Shown: positions 1,601 through 59,737 of the stretch, in pieces
How positions within the stretch are numbered: the first letter of the stretch is position 1
Layout of the letters: each line of letters starts with the position of its first letter
Assembly (NCBI GenBank): GCA_964409615.1
Contig: CAYPDT010000001.1
Coordinates: forward strand, 243,880 to 307,879
Length of the DNA stretch: 64,000 bases
DNA from: an uncultured Candidatus Saccharibacteria bacterium
GTDB taxonomy: Bacteria; Patescibacteriota; Saccharimonadia; Saccharimonadales; AWTP1-31
Direction: 5' to 3'
The notes under the pieces: model-generated
What the model was told of the DNA's origin: nothing
Databases searched by the model: none
Seen by the model: the letters and a program-made list of their open reading frames with translations, nothing else
Made by a program: the position numbers and the translations under genes

Positions 1601-3076
1601 CTAGTTCCGTTTAGCGGCGATAGAGTAGCCGATGGCAGACAAACCAAGTAGTGTGGCGATAACCACGCCAAGTAGAGATACTGAATTGATGCCGGTGTTT
1701 GGTGCGGCAGCATTAGTGCCAGCATTTGCATTGGTGGTTGTAGCTGAGCAGACAGCACCTTCGAATTGGTAGGCACCAACAGATGGACAAGAATTACGGG
1801 CTACACCACGAGCATCGGTAGATATGCCTAAGACCTGACCACCGGCGTTAATTGCCGGACTACCTGCCAATAAGGCCATGGTTGGTACAACACCACCATT
1901 GTCCTGCAGCGGGCCGAGAGTGCTGAAAAGATTGGCAAGATTTTGTTGGTCGCCGGGTTGGGTAAAGGTGGTACACGTACTATCGTCGGATAAATTATGG
2001 CCGTCGGAAATAATCCCGGTAGTAACCGTGCCTGTCAGGCCACCAAATGCCGCATTACCATTTAATTCAGCACAGTTGGACGATACATTATCGCTGATAT
2101 TATTGGTGAGCAGGCTATTTTCGACGTTCATAGTAACGGACGAGGTGTGCGGTGTCGCCGCTGCTCCACCGGTGAAGAAGGCCACTGAATTTTCACCAAT
2201 CGAACCAGTACTTCCGTCAAGTCCGACAACTGTTACGTTTTTTACAATCACACTGATGGTGGTATCACCGCTCAACGCCGCACCAATGCTTCCAAATCCT
2301 AGCGCTGCTGCAGAAGCAGTTATGTTATTAATAGTTGTATTGTAGACATTTGCATTTACCGTGCCGGTTCCGGCTATTAGGACAAAGAAGGCTCCGGCAT
2401 CGCCAGCAGAGTTATGTATATTTGCTACCGTAGTATTCTGTATATTGGCCGTAGGTGTAGAGGTATTAAAGGCATATACCCCACTAGTTGCCGCGGCGTC
2501 TAGATCATGAATATAGACGTTATTAGCTGTCGTGGTAACATTGGCCGCTGCGGAGTTGCCCAGTTCCACACCCTTTAATTGGTTCCCCGTTGGCAGGGCG
2601 TTAGTGCCATCTATTTCAATGTTTGATAGTGTCACACTGCCATTGGTGCTGATAATTCCTTGCCCAAGATAGCTGGCTATTTTCAAGTCCTGGACAGTAA
2701 CGACAGCCGTAGAACTGTTGATGCGAATTGTGCGATATTGCCCAGCATTTCCATCAATTGTCGTCTGGCTCATCCCAGCTCCCTGGATCTTGACCGACAC
2801 CGATATTGTCGGTGAATCTGCTGTTAACGTCTGCGTGCCTGCAGGTATGGTAATGGTGTCATTGGTTCCATAGCCGTCTGGTGAGACTGTAGCTGTGCAG
2901 CCGGATTGATTAGAACCGGCATTAACCGAGTCAATCGCGATTGGCAGGGTACAGCCACCGGTGACGTTAAGGGTTGCCGCATGCGCCCGACCGGAACCAG
3001 AAGCAAGCACCGCCAGGAAGGCGAATGTTGCGAGGATTAGTTTGTTTGTTTTTGTTAGATTCAGAATACTGATCAT
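1601..3076 (-). CDS. Sortase-anchored surface protein, beta-helix-like repeats, APNTG sorting signal (paralog 1)
   Basis: Signal peptide (..GSGRAHA/ATLNV) followed by a G/N/T-rich repeat core. The C-terminal module is GHNLSDDSTC..DARGVAR..GAYQFEG (choice-of-anchor-Q-like). It ends with APNTG, a hydrophobic helix and a KRN tail. Confidence 0.75.
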   Translation of the reverse strand: MISILNLTKTNKLILATFAFLAVLASGSGRAHAATLNVTGGCTLPIAIDSVNAGSNQSGCTATVSPDGYGTNDTITIPAGTQTLTADSPTISVSVKIQGAGMSQTTIDGNAGQYRTIRINSSTAVVTVQDLKIASYLGQGIISTNGSVTLSNIEIDGTNALPTGNQLKGVELGNSAAANVTTTANNVYIHDLDAAATSGVYAFNTSTPTANIQNTTVANIHNSAGDAGAFFVLIAGTGTVNANVYNTTINNITASAAALGFGSIGAALSGDTTISVIVKNVTVVGLDGSTGSIGENSVAFFTGGAAATPHTSSVTMNVENSLLTNNISDNVSSNCAELNGNAAFGGLTGTVTTGIISDGHNLSDDSTCTTFTQPGDQQNLANLFSTLGPLQDNGGVVPTMALLAGSPAINAGGQVLGISTDARGVARNSCPSVGAYQFEGAVCSATTTNANAGTNAAAPNTGINSVSLLGVVIATLLGLSAIGYSIAAKRN

Positions 3077-3114: not shown

Positions 3115-3143
3115 ATTCTACCCCCCCCTGAGATACAAAGCAA
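3115..3143 (-). promoter_or_regulatory. Putative sigma70-type promoter TTGCTT-N17-TAGAAT with a G8 tract in the spacer
   Basis: Read on the minus strand, -35 is at 3138-3143 and -10 at 3115-3120. The spacer is 9 nt plus G8 (3121-3128 on the plus strand as C8). Confidence 0.45.
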
Positions 3144-3996: not shown

Positions 3997-5475
3997 CTAG
4001 CTCGAGCGTTGTTGCTTGCGGAATACGTATGTTAGTAGTCCAATGCCAAGCATGCTGGCAAGTACATTGAGTATTTGTGCTATAGATCCAACACCCGTGT
4101 TTGGAGCTCCTGCGTTACTACCGCCAGATGCAGATGGAGTAGAAGCACCGCAGACAGCACCTTCGAATTGGTAGGCACCTACAGATGAGCATTCATCTGG
4201 GCGTGCTACGCCACGGGCGTCAGTGGTGACACCTAGAACTTGTCCACCAGCAGCGATAGCTGGAGAACCTGGCAAAAGAGCTCGTGTTGGAACTGCTCCG
4301 CCGTTATTCTGGAGTGGACCGAGAGTGGATAGTATGTTGCTGACATTTTGCTGATCACCTGATTGGTTGAAGGATGAGCAGCTGTCATCGTCTGAAATGT
4401 TATGGCCGAACGATAGAAGTGATAGATTCACTGTGCCCGGGCTACTGAACGTCGTGAGTGTACAGTTGGCAGCTGAGCCCATATGCGTATTACCCGCTAA
4501 TAGCGCATTGCCAACTGACAACGTTACACTTGCAGTTCTCGCATTCCCCGCCATACCACCAACGAATAAGGCGCTACTAGTCTGGCCATACTGCCCTAGC
4601 GCGGCCCCCGCGACATTAGTTACTGTTATATTTTGGAGTACGGTACTGAATACTGAATCACTACTATTTGCTCCACCTACATTTGCGAATCCAATCGCTG
4701 TATGCGCAGCCTCTAGGTTATCGATCGTAGTATTTACAATGCGAGAATTGACGGTACCGACTCCCATTACAAGAAATCCAAATACATCTCCACCACTGTT
4801 CGTGAGATTTGAGATAGTGGTATTCGATATGTCTATGGTACTTGATAAGCCATCTTGCAATTGAGTCTGAATACCGTGGACTATCCCTGATGTTGATGCT
4901 AAGTCATGAATGTATAGGTTATTGGTAGTTATACTATTGTCAACACCTTGGCTGTTCCCTAGCCACAATCCCCAGAGGGGTCCGCTATCAGGCTGAGCTT
5001 CGCCACCATCCACCTCAATATTTTCGAGCGTGAGAGCCCCTCCGTCATTCCATATACCTGCCCCAAAAAACTCTACAATGGTCATACCCTTTAATCTGAT
5101 ATTATCATTCGGGCTTTCAATATTAAAAGGTGCGTACAGTCCACTATCACCACTGATTACGGTCTGTCCCATACCTGCCCCCTGGATAGTCACCGATTCG
5201 GTTATGGCAGGCAAATCTGCTGTCAACGTAATCGTCCCCGCAGGAATAGTAATTGTATCGTTCGTGCCGTACCCACTAGGAGATACCGCGGCCGTACAAC
5301 CAGATTGGTTGGCACCTGCATTCACCGAATTAATAGCAATAGGAAGCGTACATCCGCCCGTGACGTTAAGGGTCGCTGCATGCGCCCGACCCGAACCAAA
5401 GGCAAGCACTGCCAAGAAGACGAAAGCTGCCAGGACTAGTTTGTTTGTTTTTGTCAGGTTCAGAATATTGAGCAT
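3997..5475 (-). CDS. Sortase-anchored surface protein, beta-helix-like repeats, APNTG sorting signal (paralog 2)
   Basis: The N-terminal ~90 aa and C-terminal ~130 aa are near-identical to the 1601..3076 product, while the core is divergent. It ends with APNTG, a hydrophobic helix and an RKQQRSS tail. Confidence 0.75.
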   Translation of the reverse strand: MLNILNLTKTNKLVLAAFVFLAVLAFGSGRAHAATLNVTGGCTLPIAINSVNAGANQSGCTAAVSPSGYGTNDTITIPAGTITLTADLPAITESVTIQGAGMGQTVISGDSGLYAPFNIESPNDNIRLKGMTIVEFFGAGIWNDGGALTLENIEVDGGEAQPDSGPLWGLWLGNSQGVDNSITTNNLYIHDLASTSGIVHGIQTQLQDGLSSTIDISNTTISNLTNSGGDVFGFLVMGVGTVNSRIVNTTIDNLEAAHTAIGFANVGGANSSDSVFSTVLQNITVTNVAGAALGQYGQTSSALFVGGMAGNARTASVTLSVGNALLAGNTHMGSAANCTLTTFSSPGTVNLSLLSFGHNISDDDSCSSFNQSGDQQNVSNILSTLGPLQNNGGAVPTRALLPGSPAIAAGGQVLGVTTDARGVARPDECSSVGAYQFEGAVCGASTPSASGGSNAGAPNTGVGSIAQILNVLASMLGIGLLTYVFRKQQRSS

Positions 5476-5512: not shown

Positions 5513-5542
5513 ATTGTACCCCCCCCCGAATATAGTGCGCAA
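5513..5542 (-). promoter_or_regulatory. Putative promoter TTGCGC-N18-TACAAT with a G9 tract in the spacer
   Basis: Read on the minus strand, -35 is at 5537-5542 and -10 at 5513-5518. The spacer is 9 nt plus G9 (5519-5527 on the plus strand as C9). Confidence 0.4.
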
Positions 5543-5634: not shown

Positions 5635-6414
5635 CTAACGTTCTATAGTTAGAAACTCAAATTTTATAGTTACCCAGTTATTGTCTAGCTCTCGTTTAGT
5701 CAAGTTCTGTAATCTTCGCTCCAGTATTTTTGTTTCACAAGCTATAAGTACAACTGGAAAGTCGCGTTCGGTGACTTTCTGCCACTTTTCTGACTCCGCA
5801 TAGGTAATGTAGCGTCTGATGCTGTTCTTGATCCTCCAGTAGGGCGCACTGGCCTCATAGAAGCTCAGGAAATAGTCTGGGGCAATTAGTTGGAGCTTGT
5901 TCGTGCCTCCATTGTCAGTAATCTCTTCGTTCTTTTGTAGGTAGGCATCCGTAAGGTCTCTTGGGAGCTTGTACTTCAAGCTAGGCAGTTCAGTCTTGCT
6001 GAAGAACTGAAATTGCTTGGGGTAATTTTGTTTAATAAATACGTACGCCTTAAAGACGTTCAGTCTGTGTTGGATATGACCATCGTCTTTGTTCTTGTCG
6101 TAGTAGATTTGTTTGAGTGCGTTTGGATCTGCAAATGGTTGCTGTCTGAGTACCTGTATTCCTTTGGGAAGTAAGTGATAAGTAGCTGGTTTACCGATGA
6201 TCTTATAGCTTTTGTCATAGTTCTGACCAATATAGCCTTGATCTACTAATATCTTTAGTCTTGTTAGTATTACTCTGGTATGTTTAGCTCCCTGACTTGA
6301 GGCAATGATTTGAGCTGTTATATAGCGAAATTTATATAGTGTAGTGAGTAGTTGAAGTTGATGTGAGTTTATGGGTCGATGTTTAGTGTTGGTGGGTTGT
6401 GGTGTTGTGTTCAT
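5635..6414 (-). CDS. Hypothetical protein, possibly replication-relaxation family (winged-helix N-terminus)
   Basis: The N-terminal segment LQLLTTLYKFRYITAQIIASS..RLKILVDQGYI resembles a winged-helix DNA-binding domain. It lies between surface-protein genes and a recombinase. The family call is tentative. Confidence 0.35.
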   Translation of the reverse strand: MNTTPQPTNTKHRPINSHQLQLLTTLYKFRYITAQIIASSQGAKHTRVILTRLKILVDQGYIGQNYDKSYKIIGKPATYHLLPKGIQVLRQQPFADPNALKQIYYDKNKDDGHIQHRLNVFKAYVFIKQNYPKQFQFFSKTELPSLKYKLPRDLTDAYLQKNEEITDNGGTNKLQLIAPDYFLSFYEASAPYWRIKNSIRRYITYAESEKWQKVTERDFPVVLIACETKILERRLQNLTKRELDNNWVTIKFEFLTIER

Positions 6415-6601
6415 AGTAAGTTTTTATACGCCTATCTATGTTAATAGATATATAAGTAAAGATGCAAGCCATTAACTCCTTGAGATTTAACTCTTATATA
6501 TCCTATCGGCAGGATATCCACAGTTGTATTTAATACCTTGATAATATACTTGTAGGTATACTTATTAGTGGTATATACTAAGCTTATAAGTGGGGGTAGT
6601 C

Positions 6602-6769
6602 ATGATACAGACAGAACCAATACAACCCAGTCCAGAGGACACTTCCGAAGCGCCGTTATCAGATAACGAGCGCATCGATCTCATCGCTAACTTACTTTTA
6701 GATTACTTAGACGAAGAGCAGTCGGGAGAAAAGGGGTCATGCAAGACGACGCAAACAAAAATGCTGTAG
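6602..6769 (+). CDS. Small acidic ORF (55 aa) overlapping the recombinase start; doubtful
   Basis: ATG at 6602 preceded by GTGGGGG; product MIQTEPIQPSPEDTSEAPLSDNERIDLIANLLLDYLDEEQSGEKG.. It overlaps the recombinase start by 31 nt, is below the ORF-track size cut-off, and shows no recognisable motif. Confidence 0.2.
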   Translation: MIQTEPIQPSPEDTSEAPLSDNERIDLIANLLLDYLDEEQSGEKGSCKTTQTKML

Positions 6770-8454
6770 CTGCTATTCGTGTCTCGACCACCAAGCAGGG
6801 TACTGAGGGTGACTCACCTGAAGCTCAGAAAGAACAAATAGAGCGTTTTGCTTTAACCCGTGGCATCACCATAAAAAAGTTTTTCGTGTTTTTGGAATCC
6901 GCTAGTAAAGAACAACAACCGATGCAGGAAGCCATTGATTACTGCAAGAATCCCAAGAACGGGATCGAGCTGTTTATCATAAAATCGATCGATCGTTTTA
7001 CTCGCGGCGGATCGCTTTCGTACGACCTACTCAAAAACCAGCTGGAAGCAAATAGCGTGTCATTGGTAGACATTTACGGCGTGATTAGTTCTCGGCAGGT
7101 GAATACCCTAGAACACCTCGGTTTTGAATATAAGTGGAGTAAATACTCACCAAGTAAGAAGTCCGAGATATTAGAGGCTGAACGCTCCAAGGATGAGCTA
7201 AGAGACATTATGAGCCGTATGATTGGGGCTGAGATTCGCTATACCCAACTAGGTTTCTGGATGCGACAACCGCCGTTCGGTTTTGTCAGTGAAAAAGTCG
7301 AAACAAATAACGGCAAACGCTGCATCTTACGACCACACCCGACTGAAGCCCAATACATTACTAAGATTTTCGATCTTCGAGCCCGTGGCACTATGCGCGA
7401 TATGGAGATTGTTGAGGAAGTTAATAAACTTGGTTATCGAGGACGAGTGCAATATGTCCGAGATAAGAGTGATCGGTCTAAAGTTTTAAAGAAACGTGGA
7501 GGCGACCCCTTAACCCTCAAAGCCTTGGATCGTATTGTCTCTAATCCAATCTATGCTGGGATTAATGCCGAGAAATGGACTGACGGGAAACCAGTGCAGT
7601 GCGCTTTTGACGGGCTCGTATCTATCGACCAGTTTAACCGCGCGAACAAAGGTAAGAAGATCATCACCAAAGATGATCAAGGCGACATTTTCATCATCAA
7701 CAGAGCGCCAGAGCCACGCTACGCAGTCATCAAAGGCACTCGCAATCCTGATTTTCCATACCGCAAGTTTGTTCTGTGCCCAGAGTGCCATAGACCGCTA
7801 ATTGGCAGCGCATCGCGGGGTAAGTCCGGTAAACATTATCCAGCTTATCACTGTGATAAACGCGGCCATTATTTTCGTGTACCTAAAAAGGAACTGGAGG
7901 ATAGAGTGAATGAATTTATAAACGGTATTCGTGTCTCGCCGGAGCAGGTCGATAAAGTTTTGGCTGTTATTGAAGCCGAGTGGAAGAAGCGGGAACAGGC
8001 GCTCAAACAAGAGGTTGAGACGCTTGATAGCCACATACTGGGCTTACGTACCGAAATTGACATGACTGGAAGCAAGATTAAGCTCGTGAGCAACGAGACA
8101 GCAATTAAATACATAGAGGAGGACATTGTGCGTATAGAACAACAAATTAAAGAGCTGGAGGCTACGAAGATGAAGAAGATAAACCGTAAACCCATTAATT
8201 GGCAGGGTCTGAAAGCTAGGGTTCGCTACCTGGCGGAACACTTTGATGAGCTACTACTACAACAGATTGATCCGGTCAAAAAAGCTCAATTTTTTGCTGC
8301 ATTATTCAATAAATTTCCAACATTTGAAGATCTAGCCAGCGGAACACCCGGCAAGCCAAACTTTACAGGGGTGAATCCAATATTTTCTCTTGCTAAATTA
8401 CCTACTACCCATTTGGTGACCTCACGGGGAATCGAACCCCGATTGCCGGGATGA
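6739..8454 (+). CDS. Large serine recombinase
   Basis: N-terminal resolvase domain with the catalytic Ser context AAIRVSTTKQ. A recombinase domain follows, then a Cys/His zinc-ribbon (CPECHRPL..YHCDKRGH) and a C-terminal coiled coil. The last ~14 codons are antisense to tRNA-Glu. Confidence 0.9.
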   Translation: MQDDANKNAVAAIRVSTTKQGTEGDSPEAQKEQIERFALTRGITIKKFFVFLESASKEQQPMQEAIDYCKNPKNGIELFIIKSIDRFTRGGSLSYDLLKNQLEANSVSLVDIYGVISSRQVNTLEHLGFEYKWSKYSPSKKSEILEAERSKDELRDIMSRMIGAEIRYTQLGFWMRQPPFGFVSEKVETNNGKRCILRPHPTEAQYITKIFDLRARGTMRDMEIVEEVNKLGYRGRVQYVRDKSDRSKVLKKRGGDPLTLKALDRIVSNPIYAGINAEKWTDGKPVQCAFDGLVSIDQFNRANKGKKIITKDDQGDIFIINRAPEPRYAVIKGTRNPDFPYRKFVLCPECHRPLIGSASRGKSGKHYPAYHCDKRGHYFRVPKKELEDRVNEFINGIRVSPEQVDKVLAVIEAEWKKREQALKQEVETLDSHILGLRTEIDMTGSKIKLVSNETAIKYIEEDIVRIEQQIKELEATKMKKINRKPINWQGLKARVRYLAEHFDELLLQQIDPVKKAQFFAALFNKFPTFEDLASGTPGKPNFTGVNPIFSLAKLPTTHLVTSRGIEPRLPG

Positions 8455-8488
8455 AAACCCGATTTCCTAACCGTTAGAAGATGAGGCC
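8414..8488 (-). tRNA. tRNA-Glu (anticodon TTC), CCA encoded
   Basis: Manual cloverleaf: acceptor GGCCTCA/TGAGGTC, D arm TTCT/GGAA, anticodon stem TCGGG/CCCGG with loop TTTTCAT, T arm CGGGG-TTCGATT-CCCCG, then ACCA. Confidence 0.85.
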
Positions 8489-8591: not shown

Positions 8592-9563
8592 TTAGCGCGT
8601 ACTGCGCAGTTTATAAGCGCGACGTGCATAGTGCAAAACCCCAAATACATATCCTACCGAAACCAACGCCCAGTAGACAACCGAAAACCGAGCTTGAAAC
8701 AATTCAACACTAAAAAACACAGCGGCAGCAAGGTAAGTCACGCTAAACCATGCGAACTGTTTTAGGTAATGACTTGTCTTAGTGGCATTACTCACACTAT
8801 ATAGTCGCTGAAGCTCAGTTATTTGTTCGGAGTTAAAAGCTGGCGCTGGGTGCGTTTTATCGAGTACTTCTCGCATCAAGATATGGGCAGCATTTATCAG
8901 AGTTTTGGTTGAGGCACTATATTCCAATTGTGCAGCACCACTTCTGAAATAAAGAAAAATACTGTTCCCGCTAAATTCAACGTCGATCATGGTTGGAAAA
9001 TCTATTAAGCTACGCATAACATCTGGGGTTAAGATGGTAAGTACTGCTTGCTCAGTACCTCGTGAGCACAAAACATCAAAGTAGCTATGAAAATCACCCT
9101 CTAACAAGTACTGGCTTGGAATAGCCACCATGTCGTCAAGCGTGTCTTCGATGAGAGTGTCATTTGCCTTCCGGTTCAGAACTATCCTTGGGAATTCTCG
9201 CGTTGTAATTAGCCGCAATACGCGTGTCCTATTTGCAACACCATTTGTTTCGCTAATTACTAACATATCTGCTCGCAAGGTCGTACCAGGCAGAAAGCCT
9301 TTGATAGCCTCACTGACTCCACGACTTGTGCCCATGGCAATGTTTTTAAGAGCCGCAGGTGGCCGATGATGATAATAACCCAGCTCCCAACCAGCCTGAG
9401 TTGCCCATTGAACGTATGGTTGATTATTGGAATTCGCCGTGTCAGCTGCCGGATTGGCCACTTTCGTCATAGCAGGTGATGAAGGAGTGATATTTGCGGA
9501 AGGGTTAGAATTGTTTGCAGGATTTTTTTGTGGTTCCATTACAGACAATATACCACTCGTCAT
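8592..9563 (-). CDS. Hypothetical membrane protein
   Basis: Long ORF with a low-complexity N-terminus and C-terminal hydrophobic helices (FAWFSVTYLAAAVFF.., VVYWALVSVGYVFGVL). Confidence 0.5.
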   Translation of the reverse strand: MTSGILSVMEPQKNPANNSNPSANITPSSPAMTKVANPAADTANSNNQPYVQWATQAGWELGYYHHRPPAALKNIAMGTSRGVSEAIKGFLPGTTLRADMLVISETNGVANRTRVLRLITTREFPRIVLNRKANDTLIEDTLDDMVAIPSQYLLEGDFHSYFDVLCSRGTEQAVLTILTPDVMRSLIDFPTMIDVEFSGNSIFLYFRSGAAQLEYSASTKTLINAAHILMREVLDKTHPAPAFNSEQITELQRLYSVSNATKTSHYLKQFAWFSVTYLAAAVFFSVELFQARFSVVYWALVSVGYVFGVLHYARRAYKLRSTR

Positions 9564-50099: not shown

Positions 50100-50165
50100 G
50101 ATTTTTTGTTTTTTGTTTTATTTTTTTGAACTTTTTGGAATTAAACGTTTGAACTTTTGTATCTG

Positions 50166-51884: not shown

Positions 51885-52820
51885 TTAGACTTGTTCGGCG
51901 TACACAATGATGCGTTGTTCAAAACTGTTCGTTTTGCGGTTAAATGCGCCACCGCAAGATATAATGTTTAACCCGTGTTTGGCTGTAGCTGGTTGCATCA
52001 CCTCGTACATATTGACGTCTGCTACATAGTGTTGCTCTGTCTTAATAACTTTATATGTAACCTTCGTCTTATCGCCCCGTTCGATACTAATAATATCCCC
52101 CGCCTGAAGTTTCTTGAGATTCACAAATACGCCCGGTTGTGTCGGGCCAGAAATATGACCATCAATAACGGTAGCACCACTTGCTTCTCCAGGTTTTGCA
52201 CTGCCGGTGTACCAGCCAGCATCATGGACATTATTTGGGGCTAAAAGCGTATCTTGCTTGTCTAGACCAACACGCATCACTCGGGCTTTTGCATTTAACT
52301 TAGGTATTTCGATAATACGGGGCGCATCAGGAGCAACTGAGTATGAGTCGAGGTTGTTTGGCTTGGCCTCATCAACATCTAGCGGACCACTTGCAGCCTG
52401 AGCGGATACTGTAGCAGTTGCCATTCTATCTATTCGGAATGAGTTAATCGAAACCGCGATACCCACTACAAACAAAAATGTTGCCATAGCCATAAGCATG
52501 CGATTAGATACAGTAACCTTCTGCTGCTTGGTAGGTTGCTTTTCGAGCTTCCAGGCCTCGGCGCGTTTGGCGAAATCTATACGCTCGGCTGTAGTAGAAA
52601 TAATTGAGGCAGGCGATGCTTGAAGGGGAGCCTCATGAGGCAACACTTCAACTGGAGCAACATACGAGTTACTCAATATCGTTTGCATAGGTGCGGTTGG
52701 TGCAGCAGCCGTTTGAACAACTGGACTACGCTGACTGACCGACTGGACAGGACGCCGTTTGTACGGCTGAATCCTGTCATACAGCAGCGACCTATCAAAT
52801 TGTATCGATTGTGTACTCAT
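51885..52820 (-). CDS. Sortase (class E/F-like) with ~100-aa cytoplasmic N-terminal extension
   Basis: TM at about aa 107-128. Conserved His (IDGHISG), catalytic Cys context LNIISCGG, and QRIIVYA. Confidence 0.8.
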   Translation of the reverse strand: MSTQSIQFDRSLLYDRIQPYKRRPVQSVSQRSPVVQTAAAPTAPMQTILSNSYVAPVEVLPHEAPLQASPASIISTTAERIDFAKRAEAWKLEKQPTKQQKVTVSNRMLMAMATFLFVVGIAVSINSFRIDRMATATVSAQAASGPLDVDEAKPNNLDSYSVAPDAPRIIEIPKLNAKARVMRVGLDKQDTLLAPNNVHDAGWYTGSAKPGEASGATVIDGHISGPTQPGVFVNLKKLQAGDIISIERGDKTKVTYKVIKTEQHYVADVNMYEVMQPATAKHGLNIISCGGAFNRKTNSFEQRIIVYAEQV

Positions 52821-52866
52821 TTTGTTTTTTGTTTTGTTTTATTTTTGTGCGAACGGTTTTTTTATT

Positions 52867-54798
52867 CTAACGACTAGCTGTAGTGGACGAATACCTCTTA
52901 GCAATGATCACGATGAGCGCAGTGGTAAACAGTGTGACTGTCAGAGTGACAATGGGGTTGCTTCGGATGAGGCCACCAAAACCAGTGTTTGGTACACCCA
53001 GGTTGCGTGACAGCAAGACTTGCCCATCATTACCTGCGGAAGGGTTGCTTGGGAATTGAGTGGTTGCAGCACCAGCGACAAAACCGACTCTGTACTGCGC
53101 AGCATAACCGCCAACATTACTACATACAACTTTATAGTTTTGCTGACCAGACGTTGCGGTTACATTGATGGTGGCACTGCCGCCTGAGACAGTAGCGGAG
53201 TTGCTGCCAATGGCACAGGTAGTGGCATTCGTAGAAGTAACGGTGATGGGCACGGTGTCACCTTCTGTATGAGTACCGCCAGCTGCGGCTGCAGTTGTAA
53301 TGGCTGGCTTGTTATTCATTGCAGACAAAGTAGCTGCAAGTGCTAATCGCTTCTGTGAAGTCGTGGTATAGCTTGGACGGTTGTCGGTGATAGTCACTGC
53401 AGTCTCTTGCATGATACGGAGTATTGTGGCCACAGTAGCACTGGGGTTCTTTTCGCGCGCTACGGCCCAAGCACCAGCTACTATTGGACCAGCAAAAGAG
53501 GTGCCCTGCTCATCGACTAAACCGTTATTGCTGCTCACATCTGCTAGTGGTAGTCCACCATCATTAGTATTGAGTAGGTCGCCACCTGGCGCAAAGATAT
53601 CTGTTCTAGGACCTGCCTCGGTATAGTAAGCTGGGGTGTCGTCGACAGCACTAGCTGAGACTGCAACCGCGTTGGTTAGACAAGCTGGCCATGCAATTTT
53701 GTTAGCATTAGCAACGTGAACTGTCTGACCATTACCAGTATCTGTATTGCCGTTGTTGTGAGCAATCATGACCGGTGCGATATTAGCTTCACGGAGTGCT
53801 GCAAAAGCAGTGAGATACGGACCAGACTGCGAGTCTGCATCACAAGTGCTCGTGTCGCTGTAGGTGTTGTCTGGCTGTCCGATACTAACATTTACAGAGC
53901 TAATCGGTTCATTAAGTGCAGCATCATTCTGTAGTTGCGCAACTCGGTTGAGACCAGTAAGCACACCACTCATATTAACTTTATAGCAGAAGGAAACTGT
54001 TCCTGGATCTCCACAGAAGTCTGCCTGGCCGGCTTTTTCTTGTACCTTTAAAGTTGCCTTTATAAGTACAAGCTTTGCAGCCTTAGCAGAACCAGAGTAA
54101 CTCTTTCCACCACCTGTGACTTGCCTTCCGGCTGCAGCACTTGCAACGGCAGTCCCGTGAGCACAGGTGCCATCGTCAACTCCTACACTACAATCACTAG
54201 CCGCCGAAGATCCTGTCGATGTACTTGAATCAGCTCCGCCAGCACAAGTACTTATTACTTCAGCATCGGTATAACTTCCGCTTTGGCTGTAGCACGCCTC
54301 ACTCACGACTGCGCCTGACAACATAATGTGATTCAGGTTAAAGCCGGAATCGATAATAGCGACCGTCTGACCATTACCGGTGAAGTTAGTAGTACCATCG
54401 CTAAAACCATTAGCAACAGTTCCGCCCATCACTGGCAATGCCTGGTCGGTTCCAGCACCAATATCCAGTAATTTGTCTTCTGTAATCGATTTAATGCGCT
54501 TGTTAGCACGAAGCGAAGCCTCTCCCTCTGCATCTACCTGGACAACTGATACAGGCATTTCGCTGAGGTTCCGGAGAACGCGCTTATAGCCTTTTGTATA
54601 ACTAAGTTCGGTCATAACTCGGTTTTTCTGCCAGAAATACTTGGCACGAGTCTGAGCAACGCCTACTGATGTTCGCGGTTCACCTGGCAAGCTATCGTAC
54701 GTAATGATAAGCGACTTGATTGGTCCGTTTGGTGTCTCACTTCCCTCAGCCATCACAGGAGTTGAACCAATAAAGGCAAAGCCAGCTAATTGCAGCAA
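52867..54798 (-). CDS. Sortase-anchored S8 (subtilisin-like) serine peptidase, VPNTG signal; 5' end probably at 54860 via a 1-nt shift
   Basis: Catalytic triad contexts VAIIDSGFN (Asp), HGTAVAS (His), GTSFAGPIVAG (Ser). The C-terminus is GVPNTG, a hydrophobic helix and KRYSSTTASR. See the finding on the A7 tract. Confidence 0.8.
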   Translation of the reverse strand: MLQLAGFAFIGSTPVMAEGSETPNGPIKSLIITYDSLPGEPRTSVGVAQTRAKYFWQKNRVMTELSYTKGYKRVLRNLSEMPVSVVQVDAEGEASLRANKRIKSITEDKLLDIGAGTDQALPVMGGTVANGFSDGTTNFTGNGQTVAIIDSGFNLNHIMLSGAVVSEACYSQSGSYTDAEVISTCAGGADSSTSTGSSAASDCSVGVDDGTCAHGTAVASAAAGRQVTGGGKSYSGSAKAAKLVLIKATLKVQEKAGQADFCGDPGTVSFCYKVNMSGVLTGLNRVAQLQNDAALNEPISSVNVSIGQPDNTYSDTSTCDADSQSGPYLTAFAALREANIAPVMIAHNNGNTDTGNGQTVHVANANKIAWPACLTNAVAVSASAVDDTPAYYTEAGPRTDIFAPGGDLLNTNDGGLPLADVSSNNGLVDEQGTSFAGPIVAGAWAVAREKNPSATVATILRIMQETAVTITDNRPSYTTTSQKRLALAATLSAMNNKPAITTAAAAGGTHTEGDTVPITVTSTNATTCAIGSNSATVSGGSATINVTATSGQQNYKVVCSNVGGYAAQYRVGFVAGAATTQFPSNPSAGNDGQVLLSRNLGVPNTGFGGLIRSNPIVTLTVTLFTTALIVIIAKRYSSTTASR

Positions 54799-55026
54799 TA
54801 CAATAGCTACTACACCACTGCAGCCAAAGAATCGGCGTATTTTTTTGTTTGTTGTCTCATATTTTATTTTCCCTCATGTTGTATAAAGAACTTGCTTTGA
54901 GCTTATGTTTAATCAGTTATTCTGTCAACAACAAACTATGTACATGTTGTTTTGTGTACAACTTTTATCCACAAGTGTTTTGTGATTTGCCAGATATCAA
55001 TGATTATTGTTGTTACGTAGTATTAT

Positions 55027-55509
55027 TTACGCACTAATACTTCCGTGCCATTCACTCAGTAGATATGCTATCGAATCAGTCGTTTTAAGTTTAAACAAAC
55101 GGCCATTTGTGCCAGTTGAAGTGATGGTAATTGTCAGACGCGATTGTGGAAGCACATCCTGCACAATATCAGCCCACTCTACAATCACAACAGTATCAGG
55201 TTCGCTGAGTGCCTCGGCAAGTTCAAACTGCATGAGGCCTGGGTCATGCAAACGATAAAAGTCGTAGTGCACAATTCGCTTGTCGCCGCTTCGGTATTCT
55301 TTATTGACCGTAAATGTTGGGCTCGACACTTTATCTTGGCTGCCAAAACCACGAGCGATGCCTCGCACAAGCGTTGTCTTACCGCCACCTAGGTCACTAA
55401 TCAACTCAATCACCTCCCCGCCGCGCAGTCGATTGCCTATTCGCTCACCGATTTTTTCGGTGTCTTCTGAGCTGTCTGAAGAAATTTGCAGCGTCTTGTC
55501 GATATTCAT
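55027..55509 (-). CDS. tsaE: tRNA t6A biosynthesis ATPase TsaE
   Basis: P-loop SDLGGGKTTLVRGIARG, a family-typical N-terminal region (SEDTEKIGERIG) and C-terminal WAD. The start is uncertain (55509, 55518 or 55533). Confidence 0.75.
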   Translation of the reverse strand: MNIDKTLQISSDSSEDTEKIGERIGNRLRGGEVIELISDLGGGKTTLVRGIARGFGSQDKVSSPTFTVNKEYRSGDKRIVHYDFYRLHDPGLMQFELAEALSEPDTVVIVEWADIVQDVLPQSRLTITITSTGTNGRLFKLKTTDSIAYLLSEWHGSISA

Positions 55510-55777: not shown

Positions 55778-56695
55778 CTACTCACCACTCCACGCGTATG
55801 ATTGACCAACTTTTGCCAGTGCATAACTGAGCTGGTCTATAGTGTTGTCATTCACCGTACTGAGCACCACCCTACCCGTTGAATTACTAAGTGCTAGCTT
55901 TGTTTGGCCGCTATAGAATGCTTTGTACTCGCCTGGGCCTATCACATAGCCAGATAGTATATATTTCTTACTTATCTGAGAACCCACCACAATCTTGTAA
56001 GTCGAGAGGTCTATAGTCTGCGCCGACGAGTTGTGCAGCTCGATGAACTCTCCTTCGGCATCAGTTACTGGTGAAGCTGGGTCGGGCAGAACCTCAGTAA
56101 TGCGCAGTATGGAAGTGTCAACAGATGACCCGTCAGTACGCGCCACTAATGACTCGGAACTTACCGCAAAATCCTGCTTATTATTACCGGTTTGCACTAG
56201 CATGTGATTACTATCGACATTTCTTCTTAAAACCTGGCCAGCGCCCGGTGCGACTGCTGCAGACACCATAGGTAAGCCAGCAGTACCCCAACCCAAACGG
56301 TCTACTTCTTGCCCCTGATATGCAAGACGAAGATGACCTCCGCCAGCTGCTAACGTAGAATTAAATGTCTGATTAACATTAGATATGAGTGTTTGACTGG
56401 TAGCAATTACATAGGCGGAAGATGGCTCGGCTTGTCCTCGTAGGGCGATGATGCGACTCGGTTTGGTAAAATCTTTTGCAGTTGCCGGAAAATATTGGAC
56501 TACATAATCGGCAAGAGCGATGGCATGGTTAGAACTGTTGGTCAGCTCGATGAACTCATCACTGGCATTTTGAATACTGCCGGTTTGCACTGCAGTAATT
56601 AGTAAGCCATCGGGTATAGAAGTTAAAGCATAAGCTTGCTGCACTTGCAACAACTGCATGGATGCCATCAATACCGCTAGAATTACCCTCTTCAT
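55778..56695 (-). CDS. Secreted protein with two lamin-tail-like domains
   Basis: Signal peptide, and two copies of the LTD-like motif (DEFIELTNSSNHAIALADY; GEFIELHNSSAQTIDLSTY). It ends at a TAG that is followed by a long open in-frame extension. Confidence 0.65.
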   Translation of the reverse strand: MKRVILAVLMASMQLLQVQQAYALTSIPDGLLITAVQTGSIQNASDEFIELTNSSNHAIALADYVVQYFPATAKDFTKPSRIIALRGQAEPSSAYVIATSQTLISNVNQTFNSTLAAGGGHLRLAYQGQEVDRLGWGTAGLPMVSAAVAPGAGQVLRRNVDSNHMLVQTGNNKQDFAVSSESLVARTDGSSVDTSILRITEVLPDPASPVTDAEGEFIELHNSSAQTIDLSTYKIVVGSQISKKYILSGYVIGPGEYKAFYSGQTKLALSNSTGRVVLSTVNDNTIDQLSYALAKVGQSYAWSGE

Positions 56696-58440: not shown

Positions 58441-59484
58441 TTATATCTCTTTGGTCGCTATAACACTAACTTTTTTGGCAATCTCTTCGAGAACTTTCGG
58501 ATTTTCTTCCAGGTATTTCTTGGTAGCCTCACGACCTTGACCAATCTTGGCATCGTTATACGCAAACCAGGCACCCGATTTTTCGACAATTTCGTGCTCT
58601 ACAGCTAGGTCAAGAACATCACCGCTTCGGGAAATACCTTGGTTATACATAATGTCAAACTCTGCCTGGCGGAAAGGAGGCGCAATTTTATTCTTAACTA
58701 CCTTAACGCGTGTACGATTGCCAATAATGCTTTCGCCTTGCTTAATCTGTGCGATACGACGGATGTCCATTCGTACTGATGCGTAAAACTTCAAAGCGTT
58801 ACCACCAGTAGTAGTCTCGGGATTACCGAACATTACACCAATTTTCATTCGGATTTGGTTAATAAAGATAACTGTGGCATTCGAGCGGCTGATAACACCG
58901 GTCAACTTGCGGAGTGCTTGGCTCATTAATCGGGCCTGCAATCCCATATGACTGTCGCCCATATCACCCTCGATTTCAGCGCGCGGGACGAGTGCCGCTA
59001 CTGAGTCGACAACAATCAAGTCGACTGCATTACTGCGAACCAATGTCTCAGTTATTTCGAGCGCCTGCTCTCCGTTGTCTGGCTGTGAAAGCAGCAGATT
59101 CTCTACGTCTACACCAATGCGCTTGGCATAGGCTGGATCCAGAGCATGCTCGGCATCGATAAATGCAGCCGTGCCACCTTGCTTTTGAATCTGAGCAATT
59201 GCGTGCAGAGTTAATGTGGTCTTACCTGAAGATTCAGGACCATAAATTTCGATAATACGACCCTTTGGAATACCGCCACCAAGAGCGATGTCGAGCGATA
59301 AACTTCCGGTGGGAATACACTCTACTTTTGCTGCGTGAGCTTCGCCCAATTTCATAATAGAACCCTTACCGAATTGCTTCTCGATTGTGTCGAGCGCTAG
59401 GCCAAGAGCCTTGCTCTTGCCGTCGGTTGTTTGTGGTTCTTGGTTCTTTGTTGGATCTTCTTTTTTTGGCTTCTTTTCTGCCAT
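58441..59484 (-). CDS. recA: Recombinase A
   Basis: Walker [10 protein letters not shown], plus [10 protein letters not shown] and [28 protein letters not shown]. Start placed at 59484, which has SD AGGAGGG upstream. Confidence 0.95.
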
Positions 59485-59737
59485 AGTGTTCTTACCCTCC
59501 TGACACATGCGGTCACTTATAAAACTATGTTTTGCTATTACCCTCCACGAGTGGTCTATAGATAGTATACCAATTCGTAGCCCGTGTTAATTGCTCGCGT
59601 TAAAATTCACTCGATTATCGTAATAAAAACGAGCGGGTCCTGCCAGTCGGTCCGCCCCTCCTTCGCTCACTTACGCTCGCCTCCGGGGGAGCTGCCCCGC
59701 CTCCTGTCACCCGCTAACCCCATGTAGTGCACCGAAC

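Follow-up and report, generated by a model that had tools for sequence, protein, structure and literature searches.

A length-variable poly-A tract at the 5' end of a Saccharibacteria S8 protease gene as a probable ON/OFF switch

The S8 protease locus

The stretch of DNA analysed here (64,000 nucleotides of contig CAYPDT010000001.1, assembly GCA_964409615.1; hereafter the 64-kb window) is part of a tiny Saccharibacteria genome of oral type; its proteins match an NCBI record with a contig of 698,658 bp, by which the genome is near-complete or complete. The window carries a gene for an S8 (subtilase) protease that is interrupted near its 5' end by a poly-A tract, the length of which differs between close relatives and probably sets the gene to ON or OFF. 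The features of the window were read on the minus strand, and all coordinates are positions in the window (Table 1). As judged from its sequence, the gene product is probably a secreted, sortase-processed subtilisin-like protease of Saccharibacteria (TM7), and related loci originate from metagenome-assembled genomes of 'Candidatus Saccharibacteria'. The Peptidase_S8 profile (PF00082) matches residues 162-494 with 76.5 bits against a cut-off of 21.8 (E = 2.8e-21), and the catalytic residues D171 (54349-54351), H235 (54157-54159) and S455 (53497-53499) are invariant in the orthologue alignment. Matches of the protease to subtilisins in the PDB are weak. A mycosin identity was considered and rejected, since the mycosin model scored 64, far below its cut-off of 279. 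A signal-peptidase site is predicted at VMA/EG, after position 54748 (the slash marks cleavage here and below).

The protease ends in a tail resembling a sorting signal, and this tail and its G[VT]P[ND]TG motif are conserved among orthologues. The VPNTG motif is non-canonical and none of the NCBIfam LPXTG or anchor models matched the tail, so that we only infer a role as sortase substrate. An earlier note on this DNA had called the protease wall-anchored, which is plausible in view of the VPNTG motif, the hydrophobic stretch, the KR tail and the adjoining sortase, although the motif models do not recognize it. This sortase has a class F sortase as its top NCBIfam match, under the cut-off of that model, and is the probable partner of the protease. 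The pairing of protease and sortase recurs at the orthologous locus L021, whereas locus L022 has TsaD downstream instead. Also encoded nearby are a second sortase, a Lamin-tail-domain (LTD) protein, TsaE and TsaD.

Table 1. Positions of the features discussed in the text
Feature	Position	Strand	Remarks
S8 (subtilase) protease body	52867..54839	-	656 codons 3' of the tract; stop codon 52867-52869
Sorting-signal-like C-terminal tail	52870..52995	-	VPNTG (52981-52995), hydrophobic segment, KR-rich end; from translation
Sortase gene	51885..52820	-	directly downstream of the protease; Pfam Sortase E = 1.3e-21
Poly-A tract A7 (T7 on the + strand)	54840-54846	-	codons 5-8 of the native open reading frame
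Predicted native start ATG	54858-54860	-	opens the open reading frame 54810-54860; from sequence reading
Shine-Dalgarno sequence GAGGGA	54870-54875	-	9 nt ahead of the ATG; from sequence reading
Promoter-like block	54900..54928	-	TTGACA (54923-54928), 17 nt, TAAGCT (54900-54905); from conservation upstream of the native start
Nonsense TAG in the LTD gene	55778-55780	-	T in the window and L001, C in every other assembly
Poly-G tract G8 (C8 on the + strand)	3121-3128	-	about 45 nt upstream of the ATG of gene 1601-3076
Poly-G tract G9 (C9 on the + strand)	5519-5527	-	about 45 nt upstream of the ATG of gene 3997-5475
Replic_Relax protein	5635-6414		neighbour of the poly-G genes
Large serine recombinase	6739-8454		overlaps tRNA-Glu (8414-8488)

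Start region and reading frames

The start signals of the protease gene are parted from its body by the A7 tract. The earlier note had placed a Shine-Dalgarno (SD) sequence, an ATG and a 16-codon open reading frame (ORF) here, and all three lie on the minus strand where it put them. In the A7 allele, the ATG-initiated ORF, MRQQTKKYADSLAAVV followed by a stop (54810-54812), is a dead end with the codons ATG AGA CAA CAA ACA AAA AAA TAC GCC ... GTG GTG TAG. The long frame is open from 54873, and the earliest ATG, GTG or TTG in it is the TTG at 54796-54798, from which a product of 643 amino acids ending at 52867 would be made. This product begins MLQLAGFAFIGSTPVMA/EG and contains zero basic residues in that segment, in agreement with the earlier description of a signal peptide without a basic n-region. 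The addition of one A fuses both frames into MRQQTKKIRRFFGCSGVVAIVLLQLAGFAFIGSTPVMA/EG, a protein of 664 amino acids with a basic n-region, and P0081, a protein of this length from other public assemblies, matches the predicted fusion exactly. Furthermore, the first seven codons of the 16-codon ORF are the same as in the 664-amino-acid proteins P0080 and P0081. In the intact allele, positions 5-8 of the signal peptide are encoded by ACA AAA AAA ATA, which contains a tract of eight adenines (A8). Translation from the ATG thus gives 664 amino acids with A8, a stop after 16 codons with A7 and a stop after 14 with A9.

Orthologues argue for the upstream start. All seven of those compared (40-62% identity) begin at a methionine followed by a basic n-region, in alignment with the upstream ATG and the fused frame, and purine-rich GGA or GGAG motifs stand at the equivalent place. 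In an alignment of the upstream regions of seven orthologous loci, the TTGACA and TTAA(A/C)CATAAGCT blocks are nearly invariant. The leader GTTCTTTATACAAC together with TTGACA-N17-TAAGCT (54878-54928) is kept upstream of SD and ATG, although the proteins are only about 50% identical. Since the methionine of the orthologues aligns with the upstream ATG and the promoter-like block is conserved, this layout is more than chance, and the native start is judged from these comparisons to be the ATG at 54860. A scan with the sigma-70 consensus did not call the TTGACA-N17-TAAGCT block, because its -10 element matches at just three of six positions; conservation and inspection suggest that the block is a promoter. 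Besides a promoter, the conserved stretch 54878-54928 may contain a regulatory leader element.

The different starts are reflected in public annotation. The 90%-identity cluster of the protease has members of 664, 643, 642 and 628 amino acids, and the NCBI record for the proteins of the window calls the gene as 628 amino acids from an internal ATG (P0082). The deposited 628- and 643-amino-acid models are artefacts of an OFF allele, and the real product has 664 amino acids with a signal peptide.

Tract length among related assemblies

The tract was read in 11 sequences, namely the window and ten sequences from public assemblies (L001-L010), which provides the comparison of related strains proposed in the earlier note. 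Three lengths occur on near-identical backgrounds and only A8 is in frame. A7 is out of frame and found in the window and L001 (Logan SRR12404947); A8 is found in L002 (ERZ15186094), L003 (ERR8977385) and L004 (SRR22387748); A9, again out of frame, is found in L005-L009 (three Joint Genome Institute (JGI) metagenomes and SRR23702459/60) and in L010 (SRR14234080). By blastn, L001 is 100% identical to the window over 7,932 bp, while L002 differs by 11 single-nucleotide polymorphisms (SNPs) and one gap, L010 by 18 SNPs and one 2-nt gap, and L005-L009 by 26-28 SNPs and one 2-nt gap. Every gap is the tract, and the alignments, which span 3.4-8 kb with 99.2-99.9% identity, contain no further indel. 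By contrast, two other T7 runs of this DNA (50121-50127 and 52857-52863) and eight runs of 6 nt are of constant length.

The rest of the gene is intact whatever the length of the tract. The 656-codon body ORF is open in all 11 copies, and over 1,971 nt the gene bodies of A7 (window) and A8 (L002, L003) show 100% identity. Compared with L002, the A9 alleles carry 3-5 synonymous and two non-synonymous changes. The body of L004 (A8, 96.5% identical) has 40 synonymous and eight non-synonymous codon differences, a proportion that, as a comparison of codons, indicates purifying selection. The local haplotype 20 nt downstream of the tract is GCAGT with A7 and A8 and ATAGC with A8 and A9. Each background therefore holds two tract lengths, so that A8 must have changed by one base on at least two separate occasions.

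The tract is also present in more distant relatives. A 49%-identical orthologue (L012 lineage, cluster of P0004) has an in-frame A8 at the same codons (TCA AAA AAA ATG), and another orthologue carries an in-frame A7 at the same spot. In the P0004 cluster (tract at L012 968-990), one of six members, P0124, is called from the methionine right after the A8 tract and is otherwise identical to a full-length cluster member. P0124 may reflect variation of the tract in a second species, where initiation at the downstream ATG would preserve most of the signal peptide.

A scan of genome contigs for the tract with its flanks recovered two distant orthologues only, none of the species of the window, and scans of metagenome contigs for the same sequence gave no match and hence no extra alleles. 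One further contig, L026 (Logan SRR24742824_318142), begins inside the protease tract with eight A's and was considered as a sign of mixed alleles in one sample. It was down-weighted, because the end of L003 (Logan ERR8977385_509620) falls within the invariant A7 run directly behind the stop codon of the protease; breaks of contigs at homopolymers are thus common in these data and no reliable evidence of mixed alleles.

Homopolymers and mismatch repair

Long A/T runs are otherwise absent from the window. Under a first-order Markov model about 4.4 A/T runs of at least 8 nt are expected in 64 kb and none is observed, while 7-nt runs are near expectation (13 observed, 15.5 expected). The absence of the longer runs is consistent with selection against slippery runs, and a native A8 would be the sole run of its length in the window. 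Loss of MutS and MutL raises the rate of homopolymer slippage. MutS and MutL were not found in Saccharibacteria (Jaffe et al. 2021, PMC8406219). Two other A7 runs of the window lie within the first 13 codons of a gene, one at 59461-59467 in a recA-like gene (58441-59508, minus strand) and one at 9523-9529 in gene 8592-9563 (minus strand).

A slippage-driven switch and its alternatives

Taken together, these observations make it probable, at roughly two chances in three, that the slippage-prone poly-A tract gives heritable ON (A8) and OFF (A7, A9) states of the protease, and that the window strain is OFF. Slipped-strand mispairing at replication would add or remove one A. With A8, the gene would yield the 664-amino-acid pre-protein with its basic n-region. 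With A7 or A9, translation would stop early, and the remaining body, which has neither a start served by an SD nor an n-region, would be silent or at most leaky. If so, switching would be frequent and reversible, the OFF state would lose secretion of the protease, and any benefit would lie in surface variation.

The tract has three properties of a homopolymer switch: seven to nine A's stand close to the start of the coding sequence, their number varies while the flanks are 99.2-100% identical, and A8 gives an intact ORF whereas the neighbouring lengths truncate it and leave the rest of the gene in place. The earlier note had proposed that expression depends on tract length or on ribosomal slippage. 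The first part fits, in that the full-length secreted protease appears tied to tract length, whereas programmed frameshifting does not hold up, as set out below. The mechanism is classical and its extension to Saccharibacteria would be new; a full-text search of the literature on Saccharibacteria, Patescibacteria and the candidate phyla radiation (CPR) returned no report of phase variation or slipped-strand switching in their own genes.

Several points weigh against a switch. The evidence consists of differences between assembled samples rather than reads, and reversion from OFF to ON is something that we only infer. Few of the samples are truly independent: L002 and L003 are probably one sample, the A9 contigs L005-L009 are probably one project, and the window and L001 may represent one strain or one dataset, another contig of SRR12404947 being likewise 100% identical to the window. 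The recA-like gene also has a 5' A7 run, so that A7 runs alone mean little. Other points speak at the same time for a recurrent one-way inactivation, in which the tract is a mutational hot spot and A7 and A9 are young loss-of-function alleles instead of states of a selected, reversible switch. Both inferred changes lead away from the in-frame A8 to lengths that are OFF, with no documented case of the reverse. The residues T-K-K-I yield A8 with a probability of about 0.07 (7%) from codon usage alone, so that the tract need not be selected, and several orthologues, among them L011 and L022, do not have a long tract. In addition, the window strain has a C-to-T nonsense mutation at 55780 in the neighbouring gene for the LTD surface protein, which shortens the protein from 407 amino acids (L002, L004, L005) to 305. 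Together with A7 this gives the window strain disabling changes in two adjacent surface-protein genes, and the mutation is in keeping with plain decay of its surface genes.

One-way inactivation, the main alternative, is nevertheless the less likely reading. In the OFF alleles the 656 codons are free of any further damage, lineages less than 1% apart acquired OFF lengths on at least two occasions, a distant orthologue retains A8 at the corresponding codons, and the genome has otherwise been cleared of long A/T runs. These points are weak, because divergence is low.

Recoding of the A7 allele has a very low probability. It would require that full-length protease is made from A7 by ribosomal -1 frameshifting or by RNA polymerase slippage, in a programmed manner or to a significant extent. 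As the earlier note had pointed out, the register of the A AAA AAA heptamer suits a -1 slip, and such a shift yields the exact sequence of P0081. However, the split-frame layout is not conserved, since the A8 sisters and all orthologues have a single frame, and the A9 alleles would need the opposite correction. Furthermore, the RNA of 54760-54885 folds with -24.5 kcal/mol, shuffled sequences averaging -24.2 (z = -0.10), which gives no sign of a stimulatory structure. No SD-like motif is present apart from the genuine SD, which stands about 25 nt before the slip site. A stimulatory SD for -1 frameshifting stands at a distance of 10-14 nt, and seven A's are below the length required for efficient polymerase slippage. 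Programmed transcriptional slippage would go with about nine or more A/T and a conserved out-of-frame layout; the window has A7, and A9 occurs in only some alleles. Polymerase slippage occurs on runs of nine A or T in bacteria (PMC5009743), so that the A9 alleles could be leaky. In the endosymbionts Buchnera and Blochmannia, slippage of transcription on A/T runs rescues frameshifted genes (cited in PMC5009743 and PMC2831843). A low-level rescue could occur by ribosomal slippage on A7 or by polymerase slippage on A9.

An artefact, in which the window is truly A8 and one A was lost from the homopolymer through a sequencing, assembly or polishing error, is just as improbable. A contig of the size of 698,658 bp may come from long reads, which miscount homopolymers, and such miscounting has been described for nanopore genomes of Saccharibacteria (PMC9600527). 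L001, the sole other A7 sequence, is 100% identical to the window and might stem from the same project. Against this, L001 is a separate Logan assembly and again has A7 within 7.9 kb of identical sequence. In a crude scan that merged ORFs by changes of +1 or -1 nt, no other homopolymer of the window disrupted an obvious gene. The simple assembly error that the earlier note had named as its own refutation is therefore unlikely; moreover, the JGI and the Logan pipelines both gave A9, in several runs, and the A8/A9 polymorphism is independent of the window even if its A7 is wrong.

It is also hardly to be expected that the OFF alleles yield a working protease from an internal start, be it the TTG at 54798 or the 'MAEG' ATG annotated by NCBI: gene callers chose internal starts (643, 642 and 628 amino acids), the A9 haplotype has an ATG at the codon next to the TTG position and 11 nt separate the TTG from the preceding stop of the 16-codon ORF (54810-54812), a layout compatible with termination-reinitiation, but no SD precedes any internal start, the products have no basic n-region (the 628-amino-acid form not even a signal peptide), the n-region is kept in every orthologue, and a cytoplasmic pre-protease bearing a sorting signal has no obvious role.

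Other variable sites in the window

Two poly-G tracts precede genes for paralogous surface proteins of 491 and 492 amino acids with a choice-of-anchor-Q domain (genes 1601-3076 and 3997-5475, minus strand). One of the two paralogues has a weak match to a parallel beta-helix, below cut-off, and one is adjoined by a sortase gene. Each tract abuts a TAGAAT or TACAAT box, with a weak TTGCxx 16-18 nt upstream. In the JGI contig L015 the run is G9, against G8 in six other assemblies with otherwise identical flanks, and the diverged upstream region of L013 keeps G8. On this evidence, the poly-G tracts look like sites of promoter-spacer phase variation. A scan with the promoter consensus did not call the poly-G sites, and the promoter assignment is by conservation and inspection; two G/C runs of at least 8 nt turn up in about 7% of Markov simulations.

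The poly-G genes lie among genes of mobile-element type (regions 20-1531 and 5635-8488), including those for a Replic_Relax protein and a large serine recombinase, and a TraG/TrwB-like coupling protein adjoins the first paralogue. The region may be an integrative element.

SNPs upstream of the protease gene are concentrated in patches, with ten within 48 bp just upstream of the -35 element (54929-54976) and eight in the 3' part of tsaE (55049-55237). These patches are common to L002, L005 and L010 in differing combinations, a mosaic pattern that suggests recombination between strains.

Significance

It is largely unknown how epibionts with genomes of about 700 kb and very few regulators vary the surface by which they attach to their host. 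A tentative proposal, which we hold to be rather less than evenly balanced, is that Saccharibacteria (CPR/Patescibacteria) may run a small set of phase-variable genes, based on simple sequence repeats, that controls sortase-associated surface proteins. The poly-A switch of the S8 protease and the G8/G9 tracts 5' of a TA(G/C)AAT box would be members of this set. If true, the CPR would thereby gain its first described contingency-locus system, which would provide obligate epibionts with stochastic surface variation in the face of a host bacterium, phages and the mammalian immune system. If homopolymer switches act in this way, supposedly clonal co-cultures would be mixtures of ON and OFF cells, which would affect experiments on host range, attachment and immunology. 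The value of the locus lies in extending a classical mechanism to a poorly understood phylum at a site that can be tested directly.

Comparison with known systems

Among known systems, -1 frameshifting of the dnaX and insertion-sequence type (A AAA AAG/A) shares with the A7 allele a heptamer (A AAA AAA) in register. It differs from the protease gene, which has no conserved split frame, stimulatory structure or correctly spaced internal SD. The reduced genomes of Buchnera and Blochmannia likewise have poly-A frameshifts in otherwise intact genes, and by analogy the A9 alleles might give some in-frame mRNA. In these endosymbionts, the tracts are usually 9-10 nt or longer and stand in very AT-rich genomes with abundant long runs, whereas in the window runs of at least 8 nt are depleted and in-frame alleles coexist with the frameshifted ones.

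InlA of Listeria monocytogenes is a sortase-anchored LPXTG protein, and Listeria has mismatch repair. In nature, frameshifts recur in the 5' poly(A) tract of inlA, after which the product is a peptide just a few residues long (Orsi et al. 2010, PMC2831843); the same study makes the case that homopolymers at the 5' end serve prokaryotes generally as a switch. Like inlA, the protease gene, which probably encodes a surface protein, has a frameshifting 5' poly(A) tract, with the difference that in inlA A7 is ON and A6 is OFF.

With respect to the type of protein, the nearest counterpart is NalP (AspA) of Neisseria meningitidis, a phase-variable S8 autotransporter surface protease (PMC3723659). Like NalP, the protease of the window is an S8 protein, putatively of the cell surface, whose gene has within its coding sequence a homopolymer tract that would turn it on and off. 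NalP trims other surface proteins, and a similar role is plausible for the sortase-linked protease of the window. The two differ in that NalP has a poly-C tract and is an outer-membrane autotransporter, whereas the protease described here has a poly-A tract, a Sec signal and a VPNTG-type tail, and homology between them is confined to the S8 domain.

With respect to the tract, mycoplasmas, which lack MutS and MutL, offer a nearly exact parallel in the vaa gene of Mycoplasma hominis. This gene encodes an adhesin instead of a protease and belongs to another phylum, and its switching and reversibility were measured in clonal cultures, whereas the differences reported here are between samples only. 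As quoted in PMC524362 from Zhang and Wise (1997), vaa is ON with eight A's and OFF with seven or nine, and switches at 10^-3 to 10^-4. The protease gene of the window shares with it a 5' poly-A tract, here in the gene of a putative surface protein, the same proposed assignment of A8 to ON and of A7 and A9 to OFF, and a place in the tiny genome of a host-dependent bacterium.

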